DNA from: an uncultured virus (IMG/VR IMGVR_UViG_3300032212_000001)
Lineage: Duplodnaviria > Heunggongvirae > Uroviricota > Caudoviricetes
Virus record (IMG/VR): IMGVR_UViG_3300032212_000001
DNA length: 62,372 bases
Reading direction: 5' to 3' (one strand)
Each line of letters begins with the position of its first letter. Position 1 is the first letter of the stretch. Positions 1 to 59,970 of this stretch are shown piece after piece. Both the position numbers and the translations under genes were made by a program. The notes beneath the pieces were generated by a model that did no database searches, was not told the origin of the DNA, and worked only from the letters and a program-made list of their open reading frames with translations.

Positions 1-3000
1 GACAAGCTTCCAAGGATGCGTGTTCTTTCATGCTTGGGAATCAGAGCCCTGGAGGGTCATGAGAGGGCTCGCAAGAATCCCTTTGAAACGATTGAAGACA
101 TCGGTATTCGCCAGACAGAACGCTGGTTTCCTATTTTCCGATGGACTGAAGCTGATGTTTGGAATCGCATTGACAATATGGAAACGCGCTATGCGACTCC
201 CTACGACCTTGGAATGAGTCGATTGTCTTGTGCCTTCTGTGTCTTCGCAACACTCGATGATTTATTGATTTCTGCGGAACACAATCCAGAGCTACTCGAT
301 AAGTATGTGGGCTTGGAGGAGCGGCTCGCGGAGAAGCATAAAAAGATGACCTTGAAGAAGCAGGTCTCGGCTGGTGAGAAAGCTTACAAAAAAGCCAAGG
401 CGAAGGGTCTTTCTGAGAAAGAGGCAGAAGAGTCAAGAGTTTCGGCGATGAAGAACGTTCCGATGCCTCAGTTTAAGACGGATCTTTCAATCAAGGAAGT
501 GAAGGAGAAGTTCAAAGAGGGCGAGCGCGGTCGTAAGTGGTCGCGTGGGAAGAGAAGGCTTCAAGTCGTTGCTTCAGAGCCACCACCGATCCCCGAGAGC
601 CTTCAGAAGTTCCCCGAAAAGGTTGTCCACGAGGAACAGGCGGAAGTGGATTTATCATGTGCCCCTGACAAAAATGGTGAAAACCTGCGTGTTGGTGATA
701 AGGTCACAACTTTGATAGCCGGGGTCAAAGACACAAAAAAAAAGCCTCTAGAGTTTTACGAGTTCGAGATAAAGAGGATCTTCCCTGGGAAGACGGGGCC
801 ACAGGTCAAACTTTTTTGTTTGGATGCCCCTTCAAAGAACATGACGCTGGCAAGTAATTCGGTGTCAAAGATCAAAGTCCTTGAAGAGACGATAAGCAGC
901 GGTGAGGTTGATAGCGTGGGCAAAAGCGATTGGTCTATAAAGAAAGACGGCAAGAGTTACACGTTGAGCCGTCCCGAGGGTGTTGTTGCCCCTGATATCC
1001 GATTCAAGAAAGCAGCGCTTTTTCTGTCTGAACAGCTTCAATCATTAGAGATGGACTGGTCTGACTTTCCTTCTAATCCGAGAAGGAAGAAAGAAAAGGC
1101 CCTGGCTCTCATACATCGCGTTCGCCGGGTTCGCGATATCTCTGATATCGACACTATTTTAAGTGATATTGAAAGCGAGAAACCTTCAAGCGAAGCTGAG
1201 ACTCTTAAATTCAAAGTGTCTCCGTCGCTTGTTGAATACATCGACCACTTGGTTCTGGATAGGTATATCGACAAGGATGGCGAGCGATATGACATTGATT
1301 CCGAACAGGAATACCAAGCAGCGGTTTTCCTTCGTGATCGCCTGTATGACGGCGTTCTCGAATTGCCCGCCTATGGCGATGTTCTGGAGTCTGTCTATCA
1401 AATCATTCTCGATTCTCTGAACAGTGATGACGAAGACGGCACGGCACATATCGGTCGAGCTTCACGTTCATTTGACAGCTTGTCTAAAAAGCTCCTGGCT
1501 GCTCAGAGAAAATATAAGGACAAGAAGTATTTCTCAAAGAAGAAAGAGAAAACGTTTTCCATGAGAAGTGATAATGATGCCTTCGTCGGCGGTTCTGTTT
1601 GGAAGCCCAGCGAAGTTCTGGATAGTGTTGGTTTTATACTTGCCGACAAGCAAGGCGTCTTGACGATGATTGCGAAGTCTTCTGGAGGCTTCCTTGTTGG
1701 ACCTAAAGACTTCAATGATTCTCAGGAAGTGGCTCGTTGGCTTTCGAGCAAAGGTTTTGATCTTTCAACGAAGCATCGCGATTTGGGTTCTGCGGAGCAT
1801 GAAGATCCAGAATACGTCCTTCGCTATCTTGGTAATCATGACTACGACGAAGCCGTTGCTCTTGTTGATAGGCAATACAAGATTCACTTGGACAATGTGA
1901 AGGCCGATAACAGATCGGACAATCATCTTCTCTGGGAAGGAATGAACGTTTGCGAGGACCAAACCAATAGAGACGCTGTTGTTGTCAGCTTCGATGAAGA
2001 CACTGTTGAGATGAAGATCGACGAAGGGAATGGTCGATCTCGTAAGTTTGTCAGGCCGAGGTCAAAGACTTATATTGAGTGTATGCCAGTTCTCAAAGAG
2101 ATTGCCCGACAGCGAGTGAGAGAGTGGCTGATCGCCCCGATTTTAGTCAACGCCGGTAAGCCCGGTTTGACAGGTCTTTACATGGAGCGTTTCAAGGACG
2201 ATTACGAGCTTGGGTTAGGTATTCTGAACCATTTATTTGATGACATGGGGGCTTTCTCAGACGACGAACGGAAGGACTTTTTGTTTGCGCTCTTCGGTCT
2301 TGAATCACCTTCAGATGAGGATCTTGAAGAAAGGTTCGGTTCGAGTGACGTTGGCGGGATGTATGACAAGTTGAAGGTCGGGCGAGCACCTTGGAGCAGT
2401 GAAGGAAGTATCCAGTTAGAAATGACAATTGGAAAGAGCTTCTTCGACGACTACTTCAAGAAGATCGCTGACGTGATTCCTGACAGCATAGTTTATGAGA
2501 GCGAAAAAGGATCAAATGTATGGGCTCGATATCATGTGATGTTTGTGTTCGACAGGGAACTCTGGGAAGATGCTAAAGATTCATTCAAAGAGAATCGTGA
2601 CCTTGTTGAGTTCGCTAAAATCGTTACTCCTGTAAATCCTCAACAAAAAGTTGAGGACAAGGAAACCGGAACTGACTTCTCGAAGTTAGTGATTAAGCCA
2701 GTATTTGAGCAGGGTAAGAAGGCTCCAGTAATAGAGCCCGCGAAGGAAGCTGTTGTGAAAGAAGAAAACGCTTTCCATGTCGGCGCTGTTGTCTTTTCAA
2801 GAGACGACGACGAGAAAACGCCTTACGTTATTCTCGACGGCAAGCCTGTCAGTGACGGCAGTGATTGGGACGGAGCCGTTCTCATATTCCCACTTCGTAA
2901 AGGCCCTCATGGATTCATTGAATTGGCCGAGTTCCCAAAGCACTTCGTAAAGCTTGACAGTGGGCTCGTTGGACCGAAAAGTAAGTTCATTTTTCATGGG

Positions 3001-6000
3001 AAGTCAGCAAAGTCAGGCTTCAACGCTTTTAAGAAATACATCAGTGCCTTCGTGAAAGACACTGATTATGGTTCTGAAGCTAGATCTTTCTGGAAGGAAA
3101 ACAAGGGCCGAATTGATTTCAGCCCAAAGTGTCAAGATCACTACTTTGTTGACGCTGTGGATCGTCCAGATAAAGGCCCCCTTCATACAGGTGATATTGT
3201 CTACTCGACAGATGACAAAGAACCACAGGCTTATGTCCTTCTCGATGGCGTTCCTGATGAAGATGGCCTCTATAGTCTGTTCCCTCTATCTAAGCCATAT
3301 GACGGCTGGGATGGTGAAATCCTTCAGGAGAAAGGTAAGTTCCTTAAGGTTTTGAAACAAGGGCATGAAGTTGCTAATCCCCTCTTCCACGGTCGCGGTG
3401 CCAAGGCTGTGCGGATTTCATTCGAGATTCTTGTGAACAATGTCATTGTGACTGGTGAAGACCTGTTCGTTGATGATGATTATTCTTACCGTTTTACACG
3501 CCCAGCTCGTTGTTATTGGAGATCGAAGAGTTTTGATCCCCAAGCCGCTGGTCCTCTCTCGGCTGGTCGCGTTTCTAGTGAATCTGACCCCTATGGATTG
3601 AAAGAGCCAGCACCAAAGCCATCGATAGAAGATTCATACGAAGATAAAGCTCGCGCTTATTTCAGCCGTTTTAAGCCGACAGAGCAGGTTGATGAGAGCG
3701 GCTTTCAAAGAGCTATCAAGAGCCCCTCTCTTGGTCACGCTGAGTCAATTCTCAAGAACTTTTTGAGAGACGGTGTTCTCTACAAGACCAAAGACGGCTG
3801 GTATGGTCCGAAGGAATACGAATCGCAGACGAAGAAAGACTCCTACATTGGTCAAGAATGGGAGCACGTTGACAAAACTTCAGGGAAGATGGGGGAGCCT
3901 GATTCTGTTATTTACAAGGTAAAGAGGAAGGCTGGGACCAAATACTACATTGGTCACGACAAATCTGGCTTCGACAAGATTGTTGACAAATCTGATATCG
4001 AAGAATGGATTGAGAGTGACAAAGTTTGGAGCAAGAAATACAAGTCAGAGCTTGAAGAGTCTCGCAAGCCAAAGGAGTCAGTCGTCGATCCCCTTGAAAA
4101 GCGATTTGGAAATCTTCTAAATGGCAAGTCTGCCATGCAAAAGGCTCGTATTATCAAGGCTCTGGAGAAGTGGGTCAGTTGGAAAGATGAAATAAGGCAG
4201 CGTTACAAGCACGTTGAATATTACGTCAAAGAAAAGGGCTGGTTTGTTGACACTGAGACTATCGGCGGCAAAAAAACTCGTGTATTAAGAGGGCCGGATG
4301 GATCTTTCTTTGAGCAGAAGGATATCACCAAGACAGCCATCGACTATGCCGAGTCGATTCAGGCCAAAAAGAAGCCCGTCACGCCGCAAGTCATGGAAGG
4401 TCTTGACCTTTCCCCTAAAGGGGTCGAAACGGCAAACCTTGAAGGTTTTACGCTGCTTGGATCGTCTTCCGACAAGGCTCTTGACATTTATATCCATGAT
4501 TCTCCATCGCATTGGTTCGTTCGATTTGTTGATCCCGATGTTAAAGCCTTTGTGGGATCGGGATTCAAACTCGATAGAGATTGGAGCAAAGAGGACGTTC
4601 TCAATTGGTTGAGGTCGAGCAAGAACATCGAGGTCATTACTTTTGATAAACCGAAGGAGAAGCGAGCTAAGAAGCATCGCAAAATAAGCGATGCTCAATG
4701 GCGCGGCCTTGGTTATTTCGGCCTTGCCGGTTCCGATGGTGTTCGCGCCGACATCGGTAACTCGAACGACCAGCTTGTCAAAGGCGGCTGGGTGCGAATG
4801 AACACCATCAACAAACTGGTGGAGTTCAAGCTTATCAAGGACAAGAAATTCTCCGAGAGAAGTGCTACGGCTCAATCTTGGGGCTGGGTCATTACAGCGA
4901 AGGGTAAGAGAGCTTTGGCTCTCGAAGGCGAGTTCCAGGGGCATAAGCAGCCGGTCGATATGCCGACGCCTAAGAGCGGAAAGGTTTTCGGAATTGGAGT
5001 TTCCCGCTCTGGCAAGAAAGCGAGGGCGCTCCTGGCATCGCTTGATCTTGAGAAGAAGGTTCTCGAAGACCGTGATTTCTATGTAAAACTCAAGCTTGAT
5101 CCCTTCCAAGACCTGTCAATCGAGAGACAAGGGAACAAGGTTCTTTTCACTCATTGGACAATGGTTGGAAGGGCTCCCATGCAAGACCTTGCTATTGACA
5201 CTGAGGTCGAGTTTGATCTGAAGAAGAAGGAAGACGGCTATTACTTTGACTTCTATCTCTACAGATACCTGGGCGTTCATGGCGAGGGAACTTCAAAAGG
5301 TCGCGAAGGTCAGAAGTTGGCTACTTATATGCTCAAGAACGCGATTGGATACGGCTTCGGCGATCTTTCGTCTGTTCAAGTCTTGGATTCAAAAGGGAAT
5401 CACATTGCGGGCAAAGAGCCGGAAAGAATCGTTGCAGCCCCCGAATACCCAGAAGAGATAATTCGGGATCATCTGATTAAAAGAGGGGCTGCTCATAGAG
5501 GTCTTTACAGCGTTCGTATCCTTAATGAAGCTGACCGTTTCCCAGAGGCTCCATATACTGTTGAGTTCAACGCCAAGGGAGAGCCACGAAGATATTTGAA
5601 GTGGCGTTATGACGATATTGACGACGTGAGATTGGAAGCTGAGTTGCTTCTTACAGAGTCAGATTATTCGGACGGTCGGGTTTCGGAGAGTGAACCAACG
5701 GAAGCGGATGAGACCGTCAAAGACATCAAGAGAGATTTCACCTGGGAAGGTAGCGATCCCTTCCGACTTGGCAGCGTTGTGACCATAGGAAATGGTCGAA
5801 AGAGATACGGAATCACTCGATTTACCCCAGATGGCAAAGACGCTTACGTCCAAATCCTTACGGTGAGCAAGGCTGGCCGGACTAAAACTATGGCTTCTCT
5901 CAAGGAATTGAATCTAAAGAGAGAAGCTTTGGAGCCTCAGAATGAGGAACTTGCTCGTGACTTTGTTAATCGAATAGTTCGCGACGAGCAATACATCAAC

Positions 6001-9000
6001 GCTATCAGTCTTGAAAAGGAAAACGCTTTCCTAGATAAGTGGTTGGAGAAGGTTGACGGACGTTACAACGTCAATATCAACATGACCAACTATGTCGGTT
6101 TGAATCTCAAAAACGCTATCGAATGGAAGAAGAAGCAAAACTCCGAGACTTTGGCTCTGGTGGGTTCCCCTGAAAAGCCAGGGTTATCCTTCCCGCTCCC
6201 CGGTCAGAAGAAGACACCTGTTGAAGATTCTCAGCCGGAATGGTTGCAGATTGTTGATTTAGTCAAAGAAGTAAGCGGGGGAAGCCTTCATACAGTCAAG
6301 GACTTGAAGGATATTTCGGAGGGCGATTCTTTTTCAATGTCTAGTGATGACGGTCGCTTTCGTCTTGATTTGACTCCGGGTGTTTTCCAAGGACCAGCGC
6401 TCCCCCCTGGCTTTGACGACTTTGAAGAATCAGCGGATGTTAAAAGTCGTGACGTGGGAGTAAATTTCGAGTCGCTTGGATTGGAAAACGGATCTATCGT
6501 TGAAGTTGGCGGTAAGGGCTGGAGAGTCCGTCGCGTCTTGAGCGAAGTGTCTATGGACGTTTACAAAGCTGGGACTAAGGGTAAAAAGCTTTATAGAGTG
6601 AGACCTATTCGTTCGGGCTCATCCGAAGTTGAAGTTCATGAGATAGGGGCCTATGGTCAAAAGCTTCATGAAGAAGCGGAGGCTGTTGGGCCACTAGAGA
6701 TACCATCTGATTCTGGAGTCAGTGGATACGATGCCCTTGGTATGCTGTTGAACGCTTCCAGGGAGGCTGTGGGCAATTCAGAAGAGCTTCGCCGCTACTG
6801 GGCTCCCGACTTATCAACTTCGGCTCACAGGGACTCTGAGACAGGTCATACCTTCAAGTTGAAAAGTCGTCTTCCAGACGTTTCCTCCATCATGGTTCGC
6901 AAAGTCAAAGGCGTCTCGGGTTCTTATATGTGGAATCTGACAGTCCTCGTTGAAGACGGAGGCATCAAGGAAGACTGGTTTGATACCTATGAAGAGGTGG
7001 AGAGCAAGGTTAAATCTATTGTGAGTCGTGACTTCAAGGACATTTTGAAGCGGCGTCATGCAATGGATCAGTTGAGTCGTGACCCGAATAAAAGTGCTAT
7101 CGGGCCTATGAAGAAGAAAGACGATGCGGATCTTTGGGCAAGCGTTTTGGCTCTTGACGTAGGCGAAGTGAGCGCCCAGTTGTGGGGCGCTCACGACAAT
7201 CCATATATTGACGAAGACGGTTGGTATTTGGTCACGGGCGACGGCGGCTTGAAAAGACTTGTTATTACGACTAAGCAAAAGCTTGAGCATTACAAGATGC
7301 TTCTTGTTGAGCATATCATTGTGAGTTCTACGCCGATGAAGGATGAATCGACCGGGAAAGACCACTCCCTTAGATTTCATAGGACTTCCGGCGCGACTGG
7401 TTATGTGGAATACACGACGACGGATTATGATTACAGAATCGAGGTCAACGAAGATCCGAGGCAGCACCCTGGCCGAAGAAATCCCTCGATGGATTATGAC
7501 AAGAGACAAGCGGATCGTTTGAGACATATTGATCCAGAAGATCCTTCGCTTGGCATGAGATCGTTGTCTCTTGAAGCCAGGGGAGGAGGCGTTGAGGCTC
7601 CGATGGTTCGTGTCGGTGGAATCAAAGCTTATGATTACAGTGAGGGCTATATTGTAAAGCCAGTTCTTCAGATGGCAAAAGAGGCTGAGTGGTTTGTTGA
7701 CCCCGATGATTTTGCCTCTGGTGATTATGGAATAAAGGCTCCTCCTGTAGCCTTGGTGTCGTTCCATAACGGTCCTGACTACTTGGTATCAACCAGTCGA
7801 GAGGCGGTGGTTAAATTCAGGGACTTCTTCCTGGCTCGTCTTGAGGAGAGAGAGTCTCAGTATTCTGTTGTTGAGATAGGCACTGATTATTTAACGACTC
7901 TCTATAACTCTGAACTTGATTATGAGATCACGATTGCCAATGCTAAAGACAACCCTGATGCAAAGAGGAAGGCAGCATTTAGAGAGCTTGGAAGCGAGCT
8001 TTTGGGTGTTTCCTGGGATTTGGAAAGCATGGAAGATATCTTTCATGGCCTGAACCGGATAGCGAATCCCACGACGAGTTCTCCGCTAGGTCATTTCTTC
8101 CTTCCTGACTCAAAGCACATCGCGATTGATATGAAACGCGGCAAGGACTTCAATAAGGATTTTGTTGACTTCCTTGACAATGAGCTTCTTTCGGGTGGAG
8201 AGGTTTTTGATCGAGATGATTTAGTCGCGGCTCCAGCGAGTGAGCTGATTTGGGACAGGAAGAGCAAGGCGGCTTATCCAAAAAAAGAGAACCCCAAAAA
8301 AAAAAGAGGTGATTTCGACAAGGGCAAGGTGAAGAATCCGATCTCCCCTTGGCGTGGCGGCACAGTCTTTCGATCTGTTTCTCCCTGGGAGCTTTACGAT
8401 ATATTTGACAAGGGGGAGATGACAGGTCGTGCGTCCCGTTACTGGGCAGACCCGAGACCAGAGTGTTTGCTTTTTTATGGAGATGAAATAGAAGGTGTTC
8501 TGAGCCACGGATCTGATTACACAAGAGCTGTTGGGGGAAGGGACGTATTCACCAAATCCTACATACTTGCTGCTAGAGTGGATAAGGAAGCGAAGAAGCT
8601 TTCCGAGAAGGCAGCGGTTGCAGAGCTTCTTGTGAACGTTCTTTATGACCACGGGAAAGAGGAAGCGTCGGAGGAGCTTGAAGAAGGCTTGGAAGAGTCA
8701 TTTAGGGAGCCCCTGGAGCGCTTGAGAAAGATTCCCGGCGAGATTCGTAGGGAAATTTCAAGAGTCGTTGGAAGCGGCGCTAAAAGGCTTGAGAGCCTTT
8801 CACGGGAATTTGACTCCTATGTTGTAGAGTTAGGTCTCATTGAAGGAACTTATTACACGGGCAAACATTCAATGGCTGGCGGGACGGGGGACAACAACAA
8901 TGAGATATGCACTCGTCCAGGCTTTGCAGTCCCTATTGAAGAGATCGAGAAGATACACTTTGTAAAAGCGGGCAGGGTCGTAAAAACGTTAGAAGGCCCC

Positions 9001-9231
9001 TTTACCCATCAGCATTTTGGTGATTTATTTGAATACCCACCAGAAATTGAAGAAGCCGATTCTTTCGAGTCATTGTATAAAGGTTATTTGAGTGAGTCTC
9101 GTGAGAAGATAAACGAATTGCACTCAGCAGAAGCCTACTGGCTTTCTGATGTTGATAATAGGCTTGTCGAAGAAGCCAAGGATCAGCGCGAAGTATTGAA
9201 GAAGCTTCATCAGAGGCGACGGTTAAATTAG
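1..9231 (+). CDS. Giant (>3,070 aa) modular/polyvalent protein, 5'-truncated; N-terminal PAPS-reductase-like domain
   Basis: Frame is open from base 1. GIRALEGHERAR, PIFRWTEADVW and YDLGMSRLSCAFC match the C-terminal half of the PAPS-reductase/DndC-like family. The rest is a string of small domains, including an internal duplication (2764-3530). Confidence 0.8.
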   Translation, partial: DKLPRMRVLSCLGIRALEGHERARKNPFETIEDIGIRQTERWFPIFRWTEADVWNRIDNMETRYATPYDLGMSRLSCAFCVFATLDDLLISAEHNPELLDKYVGLEERLAEKHKKMTLKKQVSAGEKAYKKAKAKGLSEKEAEESRVSAMKNVPMPQFKTDLSIKEVKEKFKEGERGRKWSRGKRRLQVVASEPPPIPESLQKFPEKVVHEEQAEVDLSCAPDKNGENLRVGDKVTTLIAGVKDTKKKPLEFYEFEIKRIFPGKTGPQVKLFCLDAPSKNMTLASNSVSKIKVLEETISSGEVDSVGKSDWSIKKDGKSYTLSRPEGVVAPDIRFKKAALFLSEQLQSLEMDWSDFPSNPRRKKEKALALIHRVRRVRDISDIDTILSDIESEKPSSEAETLKFKVSPSLVEYIDHLVLDRYIDKDGERYDIDSEQEYQAAVFLRDRLYDGVLELPAYGDVLESVYQIILDSLNSDDEDGTAHIGRASRSFDSLSKKLLAAQRKYKDKKYFSKKKEKTFSMRSDNDAFVGGSVWKPSEVLDSVGFILADKQGVLTMIAKSSGGFLVGPKDFNDSQEVARWLSSKGFDLSTKHRDLGSAEHEDPEYVLRYLGNHDYDEAVALVDRQYKIHLDNVKADNRSDNHLLWEGMNVCEDQTNRDAVVVSFDEDTVEMKIDEGNGRSRKFVRPRSKTYIECMPVLKEIARQRVREWLIAPILVNAGKPGLTGLYMERFKDDYELGLGILNHLFDDMGAFSDDERKDFLFALFGLESPSDEDLEERFGSSDVGGMYDKLKVGRAPWSSEGSIQLEMTIGKSFFDDYFKKIADVIPDSIVYESEKGSNVWARYHVMFVFDRELWEDAKDSFKENRDLVEFAKIVTPVNPQQKVEDKETGTDFSKLVIKPVFEQGKKAPVIEPAKEAVVKEENAFHVGAVVFSRDDDEKTPYVILDGKPVSDGSDWDGAVLIFPLRKGPHGFIELAEFPKHFVKLDSGLVGPKSKFIFHGKSAKSGFNAFKKYISAFVKDTDYGSEARSFWKENKGRIDFSPKCQDHYFVDAVDRPDKGPLHTGDIVYSTDDKEPQAYVLLDGVPDEDGLYSLFPLSKPYDGWDGEILQEKGKFLKVLKQGHEVANPLFHGRGAKAVRISFEILVNNVIVTGEDLFVDDDYSYRFTRPARCYWRSKSFDPQAAGPLSAGRVSSESDPYGLKEPAPKPSIEDSYEDKARAYFSRFKPTEQVDESGFQRAIKSPSLGHAESILKNFLRDGVLYKTKDGWYGPKEYESQTKKDSYIGQEWEHVDKTSGKMGEPDSVIYKVKRKAGTKYYIGHDKSGFDKIVDKSDIEEWIESDKVWSKKYKSELEESRKPKESVVDPLEKRFGNLLNGKSAMQKARIIKALEKWVSWKDEIRQRYKHVEYYVKEKGWFVDTETIGGKKTRVLRGPDGSFFEQKDITKTAIDYAESIQAKKKPVTPQVMEGLDLSPKGVETANLEGFTLLGSSSDKALDIYIHDSPSHWFVRFVDPDVKAFVGSGFKLDRDWSKEDVLNWLRSSKNIEVITFDKPKEKRAKKHRKISDAQWRGLGYFGLAGSDGVRADIGNSNDQLVKGGWVRMNTINKLVEFKLIKDKKFSERSATAQSWGWVITAKGKRALALEGEFQGHKQPVDMPTPKSGKVFGIGVSRSGKKARALLASLDLEKKVLEDRDFYVKLKLDPFQDLSIERQGNKVLFTHWTMVGRAPMQDLAIDTEVEFDLKKKEDGYYFDFYLYRYLGVHGEGTSKGREGQKLATYMLKNAIGYGFGDLSSVQVLDSKGNHIAGKEPERIVAAPEYPEEIIRDHLIKRGAAHRGLYSVRILNEADRFPEAPYTVEFNAKGEPRRYLKWRYDDIDDVRLEAELLLTESDYSDGRVSESEPTEADETVKDIKRDFTWEGSDPFRLGSVVTIGNGRKRYGITRFTPDGKDAYVQILTVSKAGRTKTMASLKELNLKREALEPQNEELARDFVNRIVRDEQYINAISLEKENAFLDKWLEKVDGRYNVNINMTNYVGLNLKNAIEWKKKQNSETLALVGSPEKPGLSFPLPGQKKTPVEDSQPEWLQIVDLVKEVSGGSLHTVKDLKDISEGDSFSMSSDDGRFRLDLTPGVFQGPALPPGFDDFEESADVKSRDVGVNFESLGLENGSIVEVGGKGWRVRRVLSEVSMDVYKAGTKGKKLYRVRPIRSGSSEVEVHEIGAYGQKLHEEAEAVGPLEIPSDSGVSGYDALGMLLNASREAVGNSEELRRYWAPDLSTSAHRDSETGHTFKLKSRLPDVSSIMVRKVKGVSGSYMWNLTVLVEDGGIKEDWFDTYEEVESKVKSIVSRDFKDILKRRHAMDQLSRDPNKSAIGPMKKKDDADLWASVLALDVGEVSAQLWGAHDNPYIDEDGWYLVTGDGGLKRLVITTKQKLEHYKMLLVEHIIVSSTPMKDESTGKDHSLRFHRTSGATGYVEYTTTDYDYRIEVNEDPRQHPGRRNPSMDYDKRQADRLRHIDPEDPSLGMRSLSLEARGGGVEAPMVRVGGIKAYDYSEGYIVKPVLQMAKEAEWFVDPDDFASGDYGIKAPPVALVSFHNGPDYLVSTSREAVVKFRDFFLARLEERESQYSVVEIGTDYLTTLYNSELDYEITIANAKDNPDAKRKAAFRELGSELLGVSWDLESMEDIFHGLNRIANPTTSSPLGHFFLPDSKHIAIDMKRGKDFNKDFVDFLDNELLSGGEVFDRDDLVAAPASELIWDRKSKAAYPKKENPKKKRGDFDKGKVKNPISPWRGGTVFRSVSPWELYDIFDKGEMTGRASRYWADPRPECLLFYGDEIEGVLSHGSDYTRAVGGRDVFTKSYILAARVDKEAKKLSEKAAVAELLVNVLYDHGKEEASEELEEGLEESFREPLERLRKIPGEIRREISRVVGSGAKRLESLSREFDSYVVELGLIEGTYYTGKHSMAGGTGDNNNEICTRPGFAVPIEEIEKIHFVKAGRVVKTLEGPFTHQHFGDLFEYPPEIEEADSFESLYKGYLSESREKINELHSAEAYWLSDVDNRLVEEAKDQREVLKKLHQRRRLN

Positions 9232-9265
9232 AGAAAACGTTTTCTGACTTTTTAAGGATGTCGTA

Positions 9266-9562: not shown

Positions 9563-9726
9563 AAACATAGCCATCCAAGAAAAAATATGCTTTGGTGTCA
9601 GATTTAAGTCTGCCATCCGTTATTATCTTCAGCAAAGCATGTCTTCCTAGAACGCTTATACGAAAAGTATAGATCATCTAGGAAACTCTAGCTTGTGGAA
9701 AACGTTTTCTCTTGGAGCTGTGTTCT

Positions 9727-12700
9727 ATGTCTGGCGAAGTAATTGATCTCTACGAAGATGGTGATGTTGTCTGTGTTAAGCCCCGAGACCGAATCGGCGG
9801 TGACAGATGGAAAGATTACGTAAAAGCCAATCGTCGAGGTGGCGTCGTCTGGGACAGGAAGCGTGGCGGTTGCCAGAACATAGTTTCTGTGAGCGGCGTT
9901 CCTGTTATCGTCGCTTCTTATGTTGAATCAGGATTCGTCCCTGTCGCGACGGACTCATTGGCAAAGAAGCTTCGTGACGTAACGGTTGACATGGCCGGTG
10001 ACGACATCAAAGCCGAGATGGAGAATGGCTTTTGTCAAACGGACGCGCAGAGAGAGACGCCTGAAGAGATCAGAAGCCGTGTCGAGTCTGACTTCAGAAA
10101 GATCAGCAAGCGCTTGAATAAGCGCGGTCTACAGCTCGACATTCACCAAGACACGGGCGTCAAGTTTTTGAAGGCACGTAACAAGGCTTTCCTCTGGGAT
10201 GACATGGGCCTTGGGAAAACGGTTCAGGCCCTTTGTGCGATTCCTGAAGAGAATCCCCCCGTTATTGTTGTCTGCCCTCCAAACGTAAAGGGCGTATGGG
10301 TTCGCGAGTCGGCTTTTTGGAGACCTGAATACACAGTAAAGACTCCCGCTTTCGCGTCCCGTGACAAAGATAAGAAAGAAATCGGATCGACTAAGAAACA
10401 GCAGTTTGCTTGGCCCCAAGAGGGTGAGATGGTCGTCATCTCCTATCAGCAACTTCCTCTCATTGAGTCTTTGTGGGGCGACGACTATGGAACTCACAGA
10501 TCCTCAGAGAAACCTAAGTATTGGGATAAAGCCGTTTCTCCTGTGATGAAAGCTCCCAGGGGGACGGTTCTTATTGGCGATGAAATTCATCGCGTAGCTG
10601 GCAAGGGTAGCGGCAAACAAATGTCAGCTCAAGCCGTCAATTTCACTTCCTTGGCCTGGGCTGTTCGTAAGTGTGGCGGTTATACCTGGGGGTTGACCGG
10701 GACGCCCTTGCCAGCGAATCCCCTCCAATTATGGCGACAGCTCACTCGCTTTGGCCTCGCAAGGGACAGTATTGGTAATTTCAATACGTTCATGCTTTAT
10801 TTCGGAGGCGAGAAGGGTCAATACGGTATTGAGTGGAGTTCTTATGGACCTCCAGACGAATACGTTCAAGACCTTGTTGACTCTCTTCGGAAAGTTGCTT
10901 TGAGGCGTGTCAAAGAAGACGTTCTTAAGAACCTTCCGCCTCTCAAGAAAACGGATACGTTCGTTAAGCTTGACAAGAGTGACAAAGAGGTCAAGGAATA
11001 CCTTGATCGAATGAACGAGTTCATTGAGAAACACCTTGGAAACAAAAAGCCGATCAACGAGATGACTCCCCAAGAGTTATTTGGTCGTATGCCAGGGTTT
11101 GAAGATTTCTCTCGTATGCGTTCGCTCATCGCGGGAACAAAGGTCAAAGCGACTATCGAGTATGTCAAGGACCACCTTGATATCGAAGGGATCTATCGGG
11201 AGGTTGCGAAGCTTTATTCAACGCCTGACAAGATTGCCTACGAAGTCAATGAGCGTCTTGAAGAACGCCGGATATTGTTGTTCACGGCAAACGTCATGCC
11301 CGCGACAACGACAATGGAAGAGCTTAACAGCCACATAAAGAGGATGAACACTGTTTACAAGCTTAAGATCCCATTTTGGTCAAAAATTAATACGGAAGTA
11401 ACGAGCGACGAAAAAACCGCTCGCGTTCGCCGCTTTCAAAACAAGTTGAATGACCCCAAAGGGTCGCTTCTTGGCCTTAGCATCGGCATTAGGGCTGGTG
11501 GTGAGGGCTTGACTTTGACCCGTGCGACCCATGGGGCAATTATTGATGTCGAGTGGAATCCTGGTCAGATGGATCAAGCTTTGGCTCGTTTCCATGGTCG
11601 CAACGACAAAATAACGAAAGACAATATCGCGGCTGGTCGAGAATACACTGTGCGATATTTCCTCATCGACCATCCTCTTGAGGAGAGGATGCACCAGATA
11701 CTCTCTGAAAAAGCGGAGACGATAAGAAATTCAGTGGACGCTATGGTATCTCAACCGGACGCTGATATTGATTATGTTCCGCCATGGGCTTATGAAGCAG
11801 AAGGGGAGTCTGGAGAAGAGCCTCTCGTGGCCTCTCTCGAAGGTCTCATGACGACGACTGAGTATGTCGAGGAGAAAGACGCCTTGGAGTCGGAGAGGTC
11901 AAAGGAAGTCGCTGACAAGGTTCTGCGAGGCGAAACTGAAGATCTTGAAGAGAGTGACTTCGAGAGCGTACAGAAACAGTGGGTCAAGGATAACCTTCGC
12001 TGGGTAACACTGTGGCACAATAACACGGGATTCTGGGTCGATGAAGATCGTTACAGTTCTTACGCTGGTCGCTATATAAGAACGAAGGGCTACTTCTACG
12101 ATCTCTTTAAGAGCGGTGATATTGACGGTCGCGGATATCCAAATACAAAACGTTGGTCTTGGTTTTTGACTGAGTTGAACAAGACGAAAAGTAGCAAGAA
12201 GCATCTGTCAGTGCCTTGGGAGATTATCGGTAAGAGAGAAGTCCCCCGGTCGGCTCGGACTGATTTGGAAAAAGAAGCCTATCGAATTGCGCCCGATTTC
12301 ATTGAGAATCGTTTTATCAGGCCCGACTGGCAGCATTTCTATGACTCCATGAGGACAGGCTTGAACAGTCTGGAAAAATACACTCGGGATATGCCCGACA
12401 GTAGCAGTGCATTGAACGGCTTGCGAGCTTTTGAGCTTCGTGATGCTGTCATGTCTGGCAAGGGTCTTACGAATCACCAGTTTGCTTATCTTGAAGAGGT
12501 TATTTACGGCAAGAAAATCACCAAGGCTATTCGACAGGAAGAGAGCGAGCTTGATGATTTTCACATGCCAGCCAATGCTCTCGAAGATTGGCTCATGCAG
12601 TGGGCCATAACTATGCAAGGTCGGGATCTTGATAAAGCGACAGTTCAGAATAAGTGGGGTTGGAGAAAGAGTCATTCACCGGATGGTCATGCCTTCGCGA

Positions 12701-38697: not shown

Positions 38698-38889
38698 GTG
38701 CAACACATTCTTCATAACAGACGCTTCCTTGCCCCTCCTGCGCTCTACGAGCCCAAGCCTCAACATGCTGTGGATCTAAAGCCTGTGCCTAAGCTTGTCC
38801 TTCCAAAGCTTTCGGTGAACGATCCCATCCCAGCGTTGATAAGCGTTGCTCTCATTGGAGGTCTTCTCTGGTGGTGGTCGAAACAATGA
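38698..38889 (+). CDS. Small C-terminally anchored membrane protein
   Basis: GGAG RBS with GTG start; IPALISVALIGGLLWWWSKQ. Confidence 0.6.
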   Translation: MQHILHNRRFLAPPALYEPKPQHAVDLKPVPKLVLPKLSVNDPIPALISVALIGGLLWWWSKQ

Positions 38890-42092: not shown

Positions 42093-42761
42093 ATGGCAAG
42101 CAAAAACAGATATCAAGATCCGCACTGGATTTACCACCCTCGAAGTGGGTCAAGGATCATTGCTCAAAGATTTCACGAGGCAATATGCGTCGTTCGATAT
42201 GGGAATGGAAGCCAGCACGTTGTCGGAGGCGTAAAGCTCTCTTATCGGTCAGCGGAGGCGAAGCGCCTATGGAGAGATAACGCCCGAAGACTGTCAGAGC
42301 AACTTGTCAACGCTTACGGCGGTATTTCCTGGGATAATCAAGGGGAGATTTCCATTGTCGTCCCGTTCGAGTCTGCGATCTATGTTTCCAGGCTCTTTGA
42401 AGCCGTAAGCGGCGGTCTTATATCAAATAACGACCGTGTTCCAGTCATGAAGCCTATTGTTGATGGCGGCATGATTGGTAGGAACGCTTTGTCCCTTTTC
42501 TCCCTCGATATGATCGGTCTCGCTCAAAGAGAAGATCATTTGCTCATGTTCTATGAAAAGAATCGCTGTGAATCCCTCCCGCTTGTTGTCAAGAGAAAGC
42601 TAGGGCATGGCAAAGACCTAATCAGCTTCATTGAGTGGTCTAACAAGCCCGTTGCTATCAGCTCCCAGATTATCCCGGCGAATTGGTCCATGATAGTCGC
42701 AAGCGGTCTAGCGAGGATCTCTGAGACTGAGCGTGGAGAGGAAAACGTTTTCCATGGCTAA
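42093..42761 (+). CDS. Hypothetical protein
   Basis: 222-aa ORF after an AT-rich intergenic region. Confidence 0.7.
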   Translation: MASKNRYQDPHWIYHPRSGSRIIAQRFHEAICVVRYGNGSQHVVGGVKLSYRSAEAKRLWRDNARRLSEQLVNAYGGISWDNQGEISIVVPFESAIYVSRLFEAVSGGLISNNDRVPVMKPIVDGGMIGRNALSLFSLDMIGLAQREDHLLMFYEKNRCESLPLVVKRKLGHGKDLISFIEWSNKPVAISSQIIPANWSMIVASGLARISETERGEENVFHG

Positions 42762-48924: not shown

Positions 48925-49805
48925 TGCCATTCGACCGCACATGCCCTGGATGCGATAAAGAATTTGTTACCCCTTTTAGGCCCCAGCGCTTTTGCTCGAA
49001 AGAGTGCGCTGGAGCCCATCGAGGCTCAATCAAACCATGCCAGGGGTGCGGTCATGATTTTCGATGCACTCGAAAAGATAGTTTCTTTTGCTCAGTGTCT
49101 TGTCGCCGGAAAAACACAAAACCAAAGAGACGGACATGCGCGGCCAATGATTGCAAAAACCGCTTTGGCTATGCCAGGAATCCGCAAAAACGTTACTGCT
49201 CTGACAATTGCAGTGCCAGGGCTCGATATGAAAAGAAGCCCCTCAATGCTTGTCGCTATTGCAAGACTATCGTAGCGAGGCGATCCAGTCATGGAGTCGC
49301 CCCTTCTGTCTGCGACGGATGCGCTGAATTGCACCACAGGGTCATAAGCCGTCAATGGCGCGACAAAAACCCTGTTAAATGGAAGCAAATCAAAGCGCGA
49401 TTCGCCGCGAAAATGGACTCATTCAAATACCATGAAAGGCTCGGGATACAGGCGAACAAGGATCTCATTGATAGATACGCACTTTTCAAAGAGGCTTCCA
49501 AGAATGTCAAGTGGAAAAAGAAGTTCTGGCTAGACATGTTCGATTATGTCCACCACGCCTACTTGAACATAAGGGTCCAGAAGCATAAGGCCGTATACTG
49601 CTTTGAAGAATGGTCTCGCGTCAAATACACTCTCAAAAAGACCAAGAAGAGTAACCAGGAGCGCCAGTGGGAACGCTGGAAATCGAAAGTGTTCAATCTA
49701 AGAATAGCCGAACGTCAAGAGGACGAACATGGCAGGGTCTTTGTCAGTCTCGACTTAGAACTTGCGAAGTTTGTTTCAAACATGATTTTAGAGGATATAT
49801 TGTGA
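48924..49805 (+). CDS. Multi-zinc-ribbon protein
   Basis: Repeated CxxC..FCSxxC units. Confidence 0.8.
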   Translation: MPFDRTCPGCDKEFVTPFRPQRFCSKECAGAHRGSIKPCQGCGHDFRCTRKDSFFCSVSCRRKNTKPKRRTCAANDCKNRFGYARNPQKRYCSDNCSARARYEKKPLNACRYCKTIVARRSSHGVAPSVCDGCAELHHRVISRQWRDKNPVKWKQIKARFAAKMDSFKYHERLGIQANKDLIDRYALFKEASKNVKWKKKFWLDMFDYVHHAYLNIRVQKHKAVYCFEEWSRVKYTLKKTKKSNQERQWERWKSKVFNLRIAERQEDEHGRVFVSLDLELAKFVSNMILEDIL

Positions 49806-50362
49806 TTTCATTTACTGTTTTGCGAGACCCGACGAACGGTGTTATTGCAGTAAAAGGCGTTATCGAGTCGGTCATAAAAAAAGAAGGTCGATTGGAAGTC
49901 ATCGGATACTTTGAAGCCAGTCTATACCCGACAGGGTCAATGGATTACAAGACCGCCAAAGAGTCAATAGAAAGGCTGTCTGAAGTTACAAAGGATTTCT
50001 TCAACGAGACGTTTCATCAAACCGCAGGGGAAGGAATTTACCGATCATTGAAGACGAATCTTTTCATTCAAGGAATGTGGAAAGAGGTCTATCAACCAAA
50101 CTTCGTTGCGCTCATTACCGAAGTGGAAGTATCAGAGCCCAAATACTACGGGCTTGGTATCGAAGCGAAAGCCGTCGAAGAGTTCTCGGAAATCTTTCTT
50201 GAAGATCGAGAGAGCACTCTCCTAGCGATCTATTGCAGCGGCAAAGACAAGGAATCCTTGTGGGATTCCAAGGGTTATAAAAAACATCCGAATGGTGGAT
50301 TCTTCTACCATTGCTGCGACTATGCCCTGGGATACTCCTGCACTCGAAAGGCTACGACATAA
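49802..50362 (+). CDS. Hypothetical protein (possible GNAT-like C-terminus)
   Basis: GTGA overlap; ITEVEVSEPKYYGLGI..WDSKGY. Confidence 0.55.
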   Translation: MISFTVLRDPTNGVIAVKGVIESVIKKEGRLEVIGYFEASLYPTGSMDYKTAKESIERLSEVTKDFFNETFHQTAGEGIYRSLKTNLFIQGMWKEVYQPNFVALITEVEVSEPKYYGLGIEAKAVEEFSEIFLEDRESTLLAIYCSGKDKESLWDSKGYKKHPNGGFFYHCCDYALGYSCTRKATT

Positions 50363-51138
50363 TGGATAGCTTGATAAGAGACCGAGAGAGAAAACGTTTT
50401 CTAGATCCTGAAGATTGCATTTTGTGTGACTCGCTCCAAGAGTCACTGCCGGATCATGGGCGCGGCTCTCTCGCTTATAAATTTCGCCACAGGCTCAAAG
50501 AAGCCTTTGAGAAGTCTGATTATCCAGACGAGGAATGGACTGAGGAGAATCTACTAGAGAGAGCCGAGAGAGTCGCTTATTCCGTTTTATCCGGCCTTGT
50601 CGGACGCGAGGCGGCTGAAGGTAAGATTCTTGTCGGCAAGAAATACTCCGAGTGGTTAAAGGGGGAGCGATATTTAGTAATCAGCGCAAGCGCTAAGATA
50701 GAACTAGACAGCCTTTCAGAAGATAAGTATTGCTTCCCTGTCACCGAAGTTTTCAAAGTTTTTATCAAACATATTCAATTTGATTTAGGTCCGACTGATT
50801 CTACTGGATCAACACAAACCTTCAATCTATCTGTCGGATCGACGTGTTCAAACGTCCTAGTCACCAATAACTTCGCCGATTCCACTGACCCCTCCATGAC
50901 TTTTGTTACCGAAGGAGACACAGACCGGCCATTACTCTCCGATCTTGAAGAGCACATGGCTGTCATGACGATCAAGGCCAATGAGATCGCTGACGAGTTC
51001 AAGAGACTTTCTGCATACCGTGAAACCCTCGATGATCTCATGCGCCAAAAACAGAAAACGCTCCCTTGCGACGGAAAAATAAAAGGGCCGCAACTTCGCG
51101 TCACCAGAAGGCCCATGAGATACAGGAAGTTAAGGTGA
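50362..51138 (+). CDS. Hypothetical protein
   Basis: TAATG overlap; 258 aa. Confidence 0.7.
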   Translation: MDSLIRDRERKRFLDPEDCILCDSLQESLPDHGRGSLAYKFRHRLKEAFEKSDYPDEEWTEENLLERAERVAYSVLSGLVGREAAEGKILVGKKYSEWLKGERYLVISASAKIELDSLSEDKYCFPVTEVFKVFIKHIQFDLGPTDSTGSTQTFNLSVGSTCSNVLVTNNFADSTDPSMTFVTEGDTDRPLLSDLEEHMAVMTIKANEIADEFKRLSAYRETLDDLMRQKQKTLPCDGKIKGPQLRVTRRPMRYRKLR

Positions 51139-51142
51139 ACAA

Positions 51143-51451
51143 ATGTTAATCGAGAATATTCACAAATCAGATATTGAGAAAGCCCGCAAATTACTGGGAA
51201 TGAATCACGAACAATTCGGGCTGCTATTCGGGGCAAATAAGGATCTAGTCATGATGTGGGAGCGTGGATACAGATTGCCTAACAAGGTATCTTGCGCCGT
51301 CATTGTAGCCTTCCTAATTGCCCTGAAGAACAAGCCTTTGCAGGTTTTTGAAACACAGAAGATAACAGACTGTCTCAAGTCAAAAGGTCGCTTGCCAGCC
51401 GTTCGCAAAACATTCTCTACAGTCAAAGGAATATCACGGCAATCTTTTTAA
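51143..51451 (+). CDS. XRE-family HTH protein
   Basis: RKLLGMNHEQFGLLFGANKDLVMMWERG. Confidence 0.75.
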   Translation: MLIENIHKSDIEKARKLLGMNHEQFGLLFGANKDLVMMWERGYRLPNKVSCAVIVAFLIALKNKPLQVFETQKITDCLKSKGRLPAVRKTFSTVKGISRQSF

Positions 51452-51532: not shown

Positions 51533-53674
51533 ATGTCCAATTGGAAGAAATACGGCTACGCCGTAGTAAAAGGTGCGCTGAGAGCTATACCAGTAGCCGG
51601 TCACGTCATAGAGGAAGTTTTGAACGTCGCGGAGAAAGACGACGCGATCACAATAGGGATCGAAAACGCCCTAGTTCAAAGCCTCCCTCCCCCAACTATC
51701 GAGATAGGAATCGAGGCGAGCTGGAATCCTGAAACTTCGTCAGAAGCTCTCGAAGTCGTCGGAAGTTCAATGTTCGAAGTCTTGGATAACAGCAAGAAGG
51801 AACAATACGAAGTTCTGCTCAAGACGATCTACACAGAAGACGACATCGAAACCAAGATCCTGAAAAGCCGGGAAATGATTCTCCAGCTCGTCACCGACCT
51901 AACAGGGTCCATAGGCTTCGAGAAAGCCGTCTCTATGGCCCTCAAGATAGAATCCGCTGACAAACCCGCATCTAGCATGAAAGATCTCGTAGGCAAGCTC
52001 ATAGACGGTCGATTTCAAGTGATCGAGGAAATCGGTCGCGGCGGATTCGGCGTCGTCTACGAAGCTATTGACCGGACCTTCGACTCAAAGTGCGCTATCA
52101 AGATCCTTAAGATCGCCAATGTAGAACATATCCAACGGTTTCGTCGCGAAGCAAGAATGTCCTTCATGTTGGGTAAGGAGACAGGGATCGTCCGGGCCTA
52201 TCACAAGGGTCGAATCGGCGAAGGGGCCTACCTCGCCATGGATCTTATCGAAAACGCTGAACCCCTCGACCTGCGAAGCGGGACACTTCGGCAACGCCTC
52301 CAGCGCTATGTTGAAGCTTGCAAGATCATCGCCAGGGTCCACCAGCGGAATATCATTCACCGCGATCTCAAACCCGGCAACTTCCTCCAAGACAAGAACG
52401 GGAAGGTTCACCTATCAGACTTCGGACTCGCAAAGACTATTGGCGGTAACAGTGACCTATCGGACGAGGAATACGCGCTGTCCATGAGCGGCATGGGGGG
52501 CATGAGAGGAACGCCCGCCTACATGTCTCCAGAACAATTCCAAAACTTCAACCGAGTCTGCAAGAAAACCGACGTTTACGCCATGGGTATCATGCTCTAC
52601 GAAGTCCTGGTTGGTAAAAGACCGTTCAAGGGAAATGATCCAACCGCTATCATTCGTCAACAAATGGCCGTTGAGCTTGGTCAAAAGAAGCTACCAAACC
52701 CTTCGATCCAAGAGCTTGACTGTCCAGAGATACTCTCAAACCTGTGCCTCTCTTCGTTCGCAATCAAGAAAGAAGATCGCCTCAAAACAGCAGATATGAT
52801 TGTCGAAGCAATTTCAACATTCCTTGGACTCAAAACAATCAACTTCATGACTCCGCAACTGAAAATACAGGAAAACAAACTAATCGACGCCCCGTCAATG
52901 TCTGGTAACAATCCTTTCATGCCGGAAGTTTCTTTAAGCTCTCCACACGTCGAGCTTAAAGAAAGTGACTTAATGGAGAGCAACGGGAAAACGTTTTCCG
53001 TAGAAGGCGTCATGCCAACTAGGGAAATGGCTTTTCACAATCAAGAAACGCTTCAATCACGCTCGATGCCGTCTCGTCAAGGCAGTGGACTGCCAAGCCC
53101 CATACTTGGCCCGCCACGCACTACTGGTATGCCAAAACTAGGACGGAGTTACGTTCCCCAGAGAACAAGAGGTGGGCCTATACTGAGACCTTATCCCGTT
53201 TGGCACAGAAGGGCCGTTTATCTGCTAGGGACAAACGAAAATCAATGGTTCAGAGAGAGATCAAACGAGACGCAAATATGCAATTTAGATCATGCCGGTG
53301 TCTTGTCTATTTTTGACGTAAGCATAATCAGAGGGATTAAAATAAAAGTTGAAGACACAGGTGAAGATGTCGATCTTGTCAGAAAATGGTTCGATTCATG
53401 CGTCTTTGAATTGAATATACAAAATGATCGAGCTTGTATGTTCAACTCACTATCAGCCAAGAGGTCGAGCGACTTCGAGCTTGAATACGACTGCGGTGAA
53501 TTAAAAGTGGGAGCTGGCATGTCATTCTCATTTACTGCGCGGGCCGACGACACAGCCCGGACATACTGGTCAAAAAAACACAACAATGGTGAGCGAGATG
53601 TCTTAACCGAACATCAAAACCCTCGCAAAGTCACCGTAAACCTTGATGTCTTAAGAGCCGAGGATATTTCGTGA
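51533..53674 (+). CDS. Hanks-type Ser/Thr protein kinase fused to a C-terminal capsid-protein-like domain
   Basis: IGRGGFGVVY, AIK, HRDLKPGN, DFGLAK, GTPAYMSPEQ, DVYAMG; the C-terminal ~175 aa align with 24251-24799. Confidence 0.92.
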   Translation: MSNWKKYGYAVVKGALRAIPVAGHVIEEVLNVAEKDDAITIGIENALVQSLPPPTIEIGIEASWNPETSSEALEVVGSSMFEVLDNSKKEQYEVLLKTIYTEDDIETKILKSREMILQLVTDLTGSIGFEKAVSMALKIESADKPASSMKDLVGKLIDGRFQVIEEIGRGGFGVVYEAIDRTFDSKCAIKILKIANVEHIQRFRREARMSFMLGKETGIVRAYHKGRIGEGAYLAMDLIENAEPLDLRSGTLRQRLQRYVEACKIIARVHQRNIIHRDLKPGNFLQDKNGKVHLSDFGLAKTIGGNSDLSDEEYALSMSGMGGMRGTPAYMSPEQFQNFNRVCKKTDVYAMGIMLYEVLVGKRPFKGNDPTAIIRQQMAVELGQKKLPNPSIQELDCPEILSNLCLSSFAIKKEDRLKTADMIVEAISTFLGLKTINFMTPQLKIQENKLIDAPSMSGNNPFMPEVSLSSPHVELKESDLMESNGKTFSVEGVMPTREMAFHNQETLQSRSMPSRQGSGLPSPILGPPRTTGMPKLGRSYVPQRTRGGPILRPYPVWHRRAVYLLGTNENQWFRERSNETQICNLDHAGVLSIFDVSIIRGIKIKVEDTGEDVDLVRKWFDSCVFELNIQNDRACMFNSLSAKRSSDFELEYDCGELKVGAGMSFSFTARADDTARTYWSKKHNNGERDVLTEHQNPRKVTVNLDVLRAEDIS

Positions 53675-57632: not shown

Positions 57633-57668
57633 GGGAAAACGTTTTCCAGAAACAACAAGGACTTCAGT

Positions 57669-59697: not shown

Positions 59698-59970
59698 ATG
59701 AGCCCTGAGCCTCCGAACAAAATATGGGAAAACGTTTTCATGGACGAGAGAGATATTGGAACGATAGTAAAGGTCGCGACAGCCTTCACAACGATCTACA
59801 GCATTGCTAAGTTAGTGGATAAGACCGGGCTCCATCCAACGACCCGGTTCGCCATTGGTTTCGGAGCTGGATACACTATCGGCAATGCCATTCTTACCAC
59901 AGACTCTCAGAAGGTCGTCGATGACGGTCTATGGCCCTCCATATATAAGAGATACTTCAAAAAAGGGTAA
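59698..59970 (+). CDS. Small membrane protein
   Basis: Two mildly hydrophobic G/A-rich helices. Confidence 0.65.
   Translation: MSPEPPNKIWENVFMDERDIGTIVKVATAFTTIYSIAKLVDKTGLHPTTRFAIGFGAGYTIGNAILTTDSQKVVDDGLWPSIYKRYFKKG

Follow-up and report, generated by a model that had tools for sequence, protein, structure and literature searches.

An evenly spaced palindrome along the window

The DNA analysed here, called the window throughout, comprises 62,372 bp from an uncultured virus of the Caudoviricetes (IMG/VR IMGVR_UViG_3300032212_000001) and makes up half of a 124,372-bp contig; all window counts refer to that half. All of its real genes lie on the + strand, and between and within them recurs a short palindrome, GAAARCGYTTTC, present in 21 copies. 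These are listed below with no strand assigned to the sites, together with the open reading frames (ORFs) in or beside which they lie.

Site 1, 1548..1559: in giant ORF 1..9231, reads KTFS
Site 2, 2764..2775: in giant ORF 1..9231, reads ENAF
Site 3, 6019..6030: in giant ORF 1..9231, reads ENAF
Site 4, 9233..9244: 1 nucleotide (nt) past the giant ORF stop, 22 nt ahead of ATG 9266
Site 5, 9698..9709: intergenic, just 5' of the SNF2 giant ORF (TTG 9712; in-frame ATG 9727 preceded by GGAG)
Site 6, 14025..14036: in SNF2 giant ORF 9712..16491, reads KTFS
Site 7, 18345..18356: in DarB-like methylase-helicase ORF 16510..22719, reads KAFS, in a poorly conserved stretch
Site 8, 21400..21411: in DarB-like ORF 16510..22719, reads ENAF, at a block that is NARFRKAE in most of 20 homologues
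Site 9, 22726..22737: 6 nt past a stop; centre of a 12-pair hairpin, then a T run
Site 10, 24835..24846: first of a pair 40 bp apart, in the 187-bp spacer ahead of a 385-amino-acid (aa) gene (24987)
Site 11, 24875..24886: second of the 40-bp pair, in the same 187-bp spacer before 24987
Site 12, 27567..27578: intergenic, 17 nt ahead of ATG 27595, 3' of a strong terminator-like hairpin at 27350-27377
Site 13, 31472..31483: adjoins stop 31471; then a hairpin and T run, with a promoter-like site at 31533
Site 14, 34687..34698: adjoins stop 34686; 15 nt ahead of a terminator-like hairpin at 34713-34737
Site 15, 38672..38683: overlaps the last stop-codon base; 15 nt ahead of GTG 38698, head of a gene pair that includes the XRE gene 38871
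Site 16, 42741..42752: last codons of ORF 42093..42761; 1 nt ahead of ATG 42754 (Dam-like methyltransferase)
Site 17, 46446..46457: in DUF5131 gene 46218..47243, reads ENVF
Site 18, 50390..50401: 73 nt past tRNA-Thr (50223-50317); probably intergenic
Site 19, 52987..52998: in Ser/Thr kinase gene 51533..53674, reads KTFS
Site 20, 57635..57646: 3 nt past stop 57632, 23 nt ahead of ATG 57669 (HNH endonuclease)
Site 21, 59728..59739: immediately 5' of in-frame ATG 59740; sole copy with A on its 3' side

The copies divide into three variants of the 12-mer, GAAAACGTTTTC (11 copies), GAAAACGCTTTC (7) and GAAAGCGTTTTC (3), which reproduces exactly the count and split given in a preliminary description of the sequence, whereas in 100 dinucleotide-preserving shuffles GAAARCGYTTTC occurred 0.01 times on average and at most once. 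A purine (R) stands 5' of 21 out of 21 copies and a pyrimidine (Y) 3' of 20 out of 21, the exception being 59728 with A, in agreement with the extension to 14 bp that had been described for 20 copies. Conservation is confined to these 14 bp, RGAAARCGYTTTCY: over the 21 copies the flanking positions carry zero information, with no promoter-like asymmetry seen in them, and at the outer bases of the 14-mer T occurs in 0 out of 21 and A in 1 out of 21 copies. The two asymmetric variants split 7 versus 3 by orientation and have no strand preference. Conservation limited to 14 bp, together with variants unbiased in strand, fits a symmetric dimer and not a promoter. All 21 copies are palindromes in the 14-18 bp range with a central CpG and a AANCGNTT-type core, and the motif, at a density of 0.34 per kb, is the sole strongly repeated 12-mer in the window. 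The mismatch count proposed in the preliminary description, carried to two mismatches from the perfect palindrome, added a single near copy, GAAAACGGTTTC at 16356 with one mismatch, the rest being at chance level.

The spacing of the copies is even. With the window ends counted, the largest gap is 4,648 bp, and 12 out of 20 gaps measure 3.0-4.7 kb; when 21 points were placed uniformly 200,000 times, the largest gap was 4,648 bp or less with a frequency of 5e-6, its median under this null being 9,958 bp. The regular spacing and the maximum gap of ~4.7 kb that had been noticed earlier therefore hold under measurement, and the spacing test supports the earlier idea of a genome-wide binding-site system with a spacing constraint. 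The distribution fits a coverage rule, in which gaps from half the limit up to the limit are expected if new sites are retained only in overlong gaps. No known operator system shows such a ceiling, and it is the part of the finding for which we found no precedent.

A limited sliding range would directly account for the ceiling of ~4.6 kb if the copies were loading or docking sites for a ParB-, KorB- or Noc-type organiser that spreads or slides for a few kb from each, be it for compaction, segregation or long-range repression. In size and symmetry the site resembles those of such systems. In addition, the giant ORF at the window start opens with a PAPS-reductase (IbrA-like) domain; such domains often adjoin ParB-like domains, which here would fall just outside the window. 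However, Pfam and PHROGs scans of the called ORFs (most of them, though not every small one) found no ParB, MatP, SlmA or LacI-type protein, and no repressor, integrase, partition gene or CTPase was recognised in the ORFs scanned, so that the comparison with matS, Noc and SlmA sites made in the preliminary description gained no support. The sequence itself, moreover, matches LacI-type operators exactly, as set out below. We regard an organiser of this kind as quite improbable.

Placement relative to genes is also far from uniform, as the non-coding 4.9% of the window holds 9 site centres (P = 2.7e-7). Sites lie directly behind a stop codon at 9233, 22726, 31472, 34687, 38672 and 57635, and 15-23 nt ahead of the next start at 9233, 27567, 38672 and 57635. 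Eight others are deep in genes (1548, 2764, 6019, 14025, 18345, 21400, 46446 and 52987), 6 out of the 8 within three giant ORFs of 6-9 kb. This pattern suggests that gene boundaries are preferred, yet that in-gene copies occur wherever a long gap would otherwise open.

The three giant ORFs are consecutive (1-22719) and sit just ahead of the structural genes:

1..9231, + strand: giant ORF 1, >3,076 aa, PAPS-reductase (IbrA-like) start, cut by the window edge
9712..16491, + strand: giant ORF 2, 2,259 aa, SNF2 helicase
16510..22719, + strand: giant ORF 3, 2,069 aa, N6-methylase and helicase, matches DarB-like antirestriction proteins

Giant ORF 3 has many homologues, at 34-42% identity, in Myxococcota and other bacteria.

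The arrangement of the genes raises two further readings of the motif. First, with all genes on the + strand every copy is transcribed, and a 12-pair hairpin with a T run behind it is centred on the copy at 22726 (-15.5 kcal/mol), as might be expected of an RNA hairpin acting in termination, processing or stability. The other 20 copies are weak, however, at -0.3 to -10.5 kcal/mol in 30-nt windows; separate hairpins with T runs, resembling terminators, follow 31472 and 34687, and eight copies lie deep in genes. An RNA signal is hardly credible on these grounds. A terminator role of the motif was rejected on the folding energies, 22726 being the only convincing hairpin.

Second, even spacing would suit chemical or mechanical marks placed at a maximum distance from one another, such as nicks, methyltransferase modification, priming signals or recombination signals. 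The start of a Dam-like methyltransferase abuts 42741, an HNH endonuclease begins just after 57635, and a DarB-like methylase-helicase is encoded. With a site every ~3 kb, however, adjacency to two genes means little, and identity with a LacI operator would have to be a coincidence. Known enzymes of these kinds, furthermore, read short or asymmetric sites. We take marks of this sort to be very improbable, and the packaging and self-marking ideas of the preliminary description likewise gained no support.

Selection on the DNA

In 300 synonymous-codon shuffles within the called ORFs, the codon-preserving null that had been suggested for this motif, in-gene copies averaged 0.51 with a maximum of 4, compared with 12 observed. 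The peptides concerned point in the same direction. Within the called ORFs, 13 out of 14 occurrences of EN[AV]F, K[TA]FS and RKRF are encoded by the motif, and these tetrapeptides occur once in 125 other proteins (~219,000 residues), almost all of which are DarB-like homologues with at most 42% identity. At the copy at 21400, where most of 20 aligned homologues have NARFRKAE, this phage has NAFRAME, and the protein has thus been altered so as to hold the site. Selection thus acts on the DNA rather than on the encoded peptide, and the claim to this effect in the preliminary description is borne out by the codon shuffle, the tetrapeptide counts and the altered block. That claim had appealed to 11 copies within coding sequences and in all three frames; by our count only eight are deep in genes, and these use two frames (ENAF/ENVF and KTFS/KAFS), while the third (RKRF, at 50390) depends on a questionable ORF that starts with TTG right behind the tRNA.

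Identity with LacI/GalR-type operators

Positions 2-13 of the 14-mer are identical to the Bacillus subtilis consensus of the catabolite-responsive element (cre) as given in PMC3463425, TGAAARCGYTTTCW, including the core G2, C7, G8 and C13 and the A/T-rich arms. The exact phage 14-mer is also contained in AAAGAAAACGTTTTCT, the cre motif given for a group A Streptococcus site that was enriched in chromatin immunoprecipitation sequencing of CcpA (PMC8359418). Furthermore, the minimal site of the LacI-family regulator LipR is an 18-mer that includes the same 12-mer (PMC10989752).

A scan of metagenomes and reference genomes for pairs, defined as two R..Y-flanked copies 8-38 bp apart, returned at least 118 metagenome loci and at least 120 reference-genome loci, and the genome matches listed come from Lachnospiraceae, Anaerolineales and other Chloroflexi, Actinomycetota, Bacillaceae, Spirochaetes and others. 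Just the two copies are carried by 108 out of the 118 metagenome loci listed. Among the matches listed, the cellular pairs lie around TTGAC/TATAAT-like promoters, with a preference for spacings of 31-32, 36 and 40 bp; the last of these, seen in 24 of the cellular pairs listed, is also the spacing of the phage pair 24835/24875. When 21 loci picked for length from the 118 metagenome loci listed were examined, 20 had a PF00356 LacI-family gene within ~2 kb of the pair, mostly directly adjacent to it, and the partners of this gene encode a sugar-binding ATP-binding cassette (ABC) component or a glycogen/maltodextrin phosphorylase. In five cellular genomes that employ the motif, 2, 4, 5, 6 and 36 copies were counted in 3.9-8.2 Mb, which indicates that it is not a generic repeat in those five genomes.

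Because pairs of the 14-mer adjoin LacI-family genes and the motif is identical to cre, we identify it as a standard LacI/GalR-type operator. Judged by its sequence, then, the 14-bp palindrome of the window is an operator of the LacI/GalR class, used unusually as an evenly spaced genome-wide array, and the resemblance to LacI operators that had been noted before is confirmed by the cre identity, by published binding and by the LacI-adjacent loci. With cellular LacI/GalR operators and cre it shares the palindrome with central CpG, positions 2-13, the occurrence of the 14-mer next to LacI-family genes, and sites within genes of the kind used there as roadblocks. It departs from them in number and in placement, since the cellular operators are few and stand at promoters (2-36 per 3.9-8.2 Mb), whereas the phage has 21 in 62 kb, evenly spaced and with 8 deep in genes. 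The outer bases differ as well, T..A being preferred in the cre of CcpA and R..Y being present here, and no LacI-family gene was found in the window.

Two kinds of cellular unit recur at the pair loci. In one, two AGAAAACGTTTTCT operators 31-32 bp apart surround a TTGAC/TATAAT promoter, followed by a LacI-family gene of 358-375 aa and a sugar-binding ABC component; it is widespread, with examples in metagenome-assembled genomes of Chloroflexi (L276, L279, L280 and L348) and in soil metagenomes (L154, L176, L180, L204, L210, L217 and L229). The other has its operators 36 or 40 bp apart, with a LacI-family gene of 329-347 aa and a glycogen/maltodextrin phosphorylase, and is frequent in Butyrivibrio and other Lachnospiraceae.

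The phage copies could also be decoys, that is, many high-affinity operators on a replicating genome that titrate a low-copy host LacI-type repressor and so induce sugar uptake or glycogen/maltodextrin breakdown. In cells the operator does control a LacI-family gene with sugar ABC transporters or a glycogen/maltodextrin phosphorylase, and the 2-36 copies per cellular genome compare with 0.34 per kb in the phage. However, titration depends on the number of sites and not on their position, which leaves even spacing and boundary placement unexplained, and it does not account for the cost of altering a conserved protein block when a non-coding cluster would suffice. A decoy function therefore seems improbable to us.

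Candidate readers in the window

The search for a LacI-type binder called for in the preliminary description was run on the window and found none: profiles of 20 LacI-family proteins, both full-length and restricted to the helix-turn-helix (HTH) domain, gave nothing at E <= 10 in the six-frame ORFs, with 20 out of 20 recovered in the positive control. Three other small proteins are candidate binders:

38871..39167, + strand: XRE-type HTH protein, 98 aa, PHROG 2104, HTH signal
51143..51451, + strand: small protein, PHROG 2104 match
62037..62330, + strand: XRE/CI-like HTH protein, 97 aa, PHROG 2104, HTH signal

All three are 97-102 aa long and match PHROG 2104, and two show XRE/CI-type HTH signals; to judge from these matches, they look like a paralogous regulator set within one phage. 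The HTH genes named before are in this way retained in part, as the genes at 38871, 51143 and 62037 look XRE-type and ORF 45917 has no detectable HTH.

A second phage lineage with the motif

In IMG/VR the exact 14-mer in its G..C form gave at least 80 matches, mostly single ones among those listed, and a two-copy scan without flanks returned 10 contigs, with more from a scan for the T..A form. A family of phages was recovered that consists of G003, G012 and G013 (~60 kb, rated 100% complete by IMG/VR) and the G003-like half of G011. Across these four records there are 16, 9, 13 and 14 dispersed exact copies of TGAAAACGTTTTCA, a perfect cre. Between the four genomes, which share 66-77% DNA identity, some sites keep their position throughout, one of these being in the DNA polymerase gene, and others are lineage-specific. 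The family encodes its own polymerase, primase and helicase. By blastp and phmmer it has no protein in common with the window, one weak G012 hit (E = 2.7e-4) apart. The nearest cultured relatives of G003 are distant, with at most 30% identity in the polymerase and 43% in the capsid, and the Rhizobium phage whose capsid comes nearest lacks a dispersed palindrome.

The G003 record (L143-L146 in IMG/VR) is 60,244 bp long; its site extends to an 18-bp palindrome, AKTGAAAACGTTTTCAMT, and several copies stand ~10 nt ahead of a strong ribosome-binding site. The G011 record (137,043 bp, likewise rated 100% complete) has all 14 motif copies and most of its matches to G003 proteins at 81-137 kb, with only a few weak matches to replication and terminase proteins in its first 80 kb, and may, by this division of its sequence, join two phages.

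The family resembles the window phage in having dispersed exact copies of the 12-mer in genes and before ribosome-binding sites, and in that no LacI-family gene was found. It differs in its T..A flanks, in having genes on both strands and in its spacing, which is weakly regular (P = 0.11, 0.03 and 0.32), whereas the window phage has R..Y flanks, one coding strand and over-regular spacing. As the profiles of 20 LacI-family proteins gave nothing at E <= 10 on G003, G011, G012 and G013, a host regulator is the simplest reader for that family, and this case favours, by analogy, a host reader for the window phage too. By the same analogy, a host regulator would be the likeliest reader of the array.

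The main alternative is a phage-encoded dimeric regulator outside the LacI family, either an XRE paralogue or a protein of the other half of the contig, that acts as an immunity or temporal repressor in a symmetric counterpart of the stoperator systems discussed below. Three small HTH candidates are present (38871, 51143 and 62037), and site 38672 is 15 nt ahead of the gene pair that includes the first of them. Moreover, the phage sites are very uniform, with 21 exact degenerate 12-mers and one one-mismatch copy, while host cre sites are described in PMC3463425 as highly degenerate; this difference suits a dedicated reader. The outer bases are lineage-specific (R..Y here, T..A in the G003 family), a difference that co-evolution of reader and site would produce. 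On the other hand, the motif is identical to operators that stand beside LacI-family genes in many phyla, and the window scans revealed nothing recognisable as a repressor, integrase or partition gene. Comparison of the window with the G003 family by blastp and phmmer also yielded no plausible shared regulator, only two weak matches to ORFs of G011 and G012 (G012, E = 2.7e-4). Overall, a phage-encoded reader seems rather unlikely to us.

The DarB-like proteins of the window phage and G003 were considered as site readers and dropped; they match different parts of one PHROG and are dissimilar by blastp.

Comparison with dispersed sites in other phages

Dispersed sites are known from the stoperators of Cluster A mycobacteriophages (L5, D29), which are described as dozens of repressor sites within and between genes that stop elongation; they lack symmetry, follow the direction of transcription and bind a phage repressor that is a monomer (PMC9283540, PMC4351075). 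The window array is similar in having many copies within and between genes; however, its site is palindromic and the asymmetric variants split 7 versus 3 by orientation. In L5, 13 exact matches to the stoperator consensus in the first 50 kb are unevenly spaced (P = 0.40). Cluster O mycobacteriophages (Corndog) carry, according to PMC4351075, more than 30 copies of an invariant 17-bp palindrome over a genome of ~70 kb, about one-third of them in coding regions, the reader and function being described there as not known. That palindrome, TGTTCGGNNNCCGAACA, is different, with a 3-bp spacer, belongs to no known operator class and becomes denser towards one genome end, whereas the window array is even. 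A third parallel is provided by the CtrA boxes of Alphaproteobacteria phages ('lytic deferment'), in which, as PMC9437464 describes it, unrelated lineages independently gained sites for a host regulator to time lysis. These boxes are clustered in one promoter-rich region and concern a response regulator, while the window sites are evenly dispersed and LacI-type. Literature searches aimed at arrays of LacI or cre operators spanning a phage genome turned up none.

Interpretation

We tentatively favour the view that the array is a genome-wide operator system, in which one dimeric repressor, probably the host's, blocks promoters and stalls transcription in long genes. The two HTH domains of the repressor would read the half-sites while the hinge helices open the central CpG, and a single repressor could dock on all copies, of which at least 21 are spread over the genome such that no point is more than ~2.3 kb from a site. 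Since no LacI-family gene was found in the window, we propose that the repressor comes from the host, where it would most likely be an abundant LacI-family regulator sensing sugar or carbon state. Copies at gene boundaries would occlude or modulate promoters, and copies within the 6-9 kb genes might act as roadblocks that stall elongating RNA polymerase; together they would couple the expression of the whole one-strand genome to the host metabolic state. The action of cre sites 3' of the transcription start as a roadblock is presented as an established mechanism in PMC3463425 and PMC3074128, and roadblock silencing would be the most plausible of the functions listed in the preliminary description. 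A bolder form of this view, possible though doubtful, is that two unrelated phage lineages have been studded with host LacI/CcpA-type operators, so that a carbon sensor of the host freezes and later releases the genome, a hibernation switch without a phage repressor.

Several points weigh against a host LacI-type reader. Local LacI-type repressors are scarce and could not occupy many replicating phage genomes, and the 2-36 copies per cellular genome (n = 5) are what is typically seen for low-copy local repressors. Under a LacI model the spacing ceiling has no established explanation, as proteins of this family do not spread along DNA. Nor do the L5 stoperators (P = 0.40) or the G003 family (P = 0.03-0.32) show similar regularity. 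The search for a reader covers half of the 124-kb contig, a phage-encoded reader being possible in the other half, and the three XRE-type HTH candidates in the window are alternative readers. In addition, the outer positions are contacted by CcpA, with a preference for T/A there (PMC3074128), and classical CcpA is therefore a poor fit to sites in which these bases are almost absent.

If one host sugar or carbon regulator does read all sites, the array would offer a lytic or pseudolysogenic phage a simple way to sense nutrition and pause its genome, and would add the largest bacterial sugar-sensor family to the host master regulators borrowed by phages (LexA in GIL01, CtrA in Alphaproteobacteria phages). 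The strict spacing ceiling calls for a mechanism with a range of ~2 kb. For further searches, two close operators followed by a contig-wide count provide a handle, which has already recovered a second phage family.

Gene content and phage context

Few window proteins match known phage families, one structural protein weakly resembling virion proteins of jumbo phages, and the closest relatives found have 65% and 43% identity. Megablast of 20 kb against cultured phages gave no match, and protein scans of IMG/VR gave no relatives, whether the query was the 493-aa structural protein or the SNF2 protein of 2,259 aa. An alignment of a 436-aa protein with three homologues recovers only distant phages (GC 31-37%) that share its N-terminal domain, none of which carries the motif. 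The sole public run with the sequence is a microbial mat metagenome, which may be its source; no RNA runs containing it were listed, and an Atlas look-up of the fatty-acid desaturase was uninformative on the host. Shine-Dalgarno sequences are used by 34 out of 67 window genes, and HIP1 is absent from the window.

Further genes of the window encode a Dam-like methyltransferase, an HNH endonuclease, a Ser/Thr kinase, a DUF5131 protein, a fatty-acid desaturase and tRNA-Thr. The tRNA-Thr (ARAGORN, 95 nt, anticodon TGT) at 50223-50317 overlaps the 3' part of ORF 49667..50362; either this ORF has a spurious end or the tRNA, to judge from its length, is an unusual call.

Short palindromes are strongly avoided. 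Out of 64 palindromic hexamers, 31 are absent from the window, although ~269 occurrences are expected in total, and these make up 31 out of the 70 hexamers that are missing. GTAC occurs 11 times compared with 94 expected, whereas the motif centre, AACGTT, shows no such avoidance (28 compared with 28.3 expected). Avoidance this extreme points to a host rich in restriction systems.

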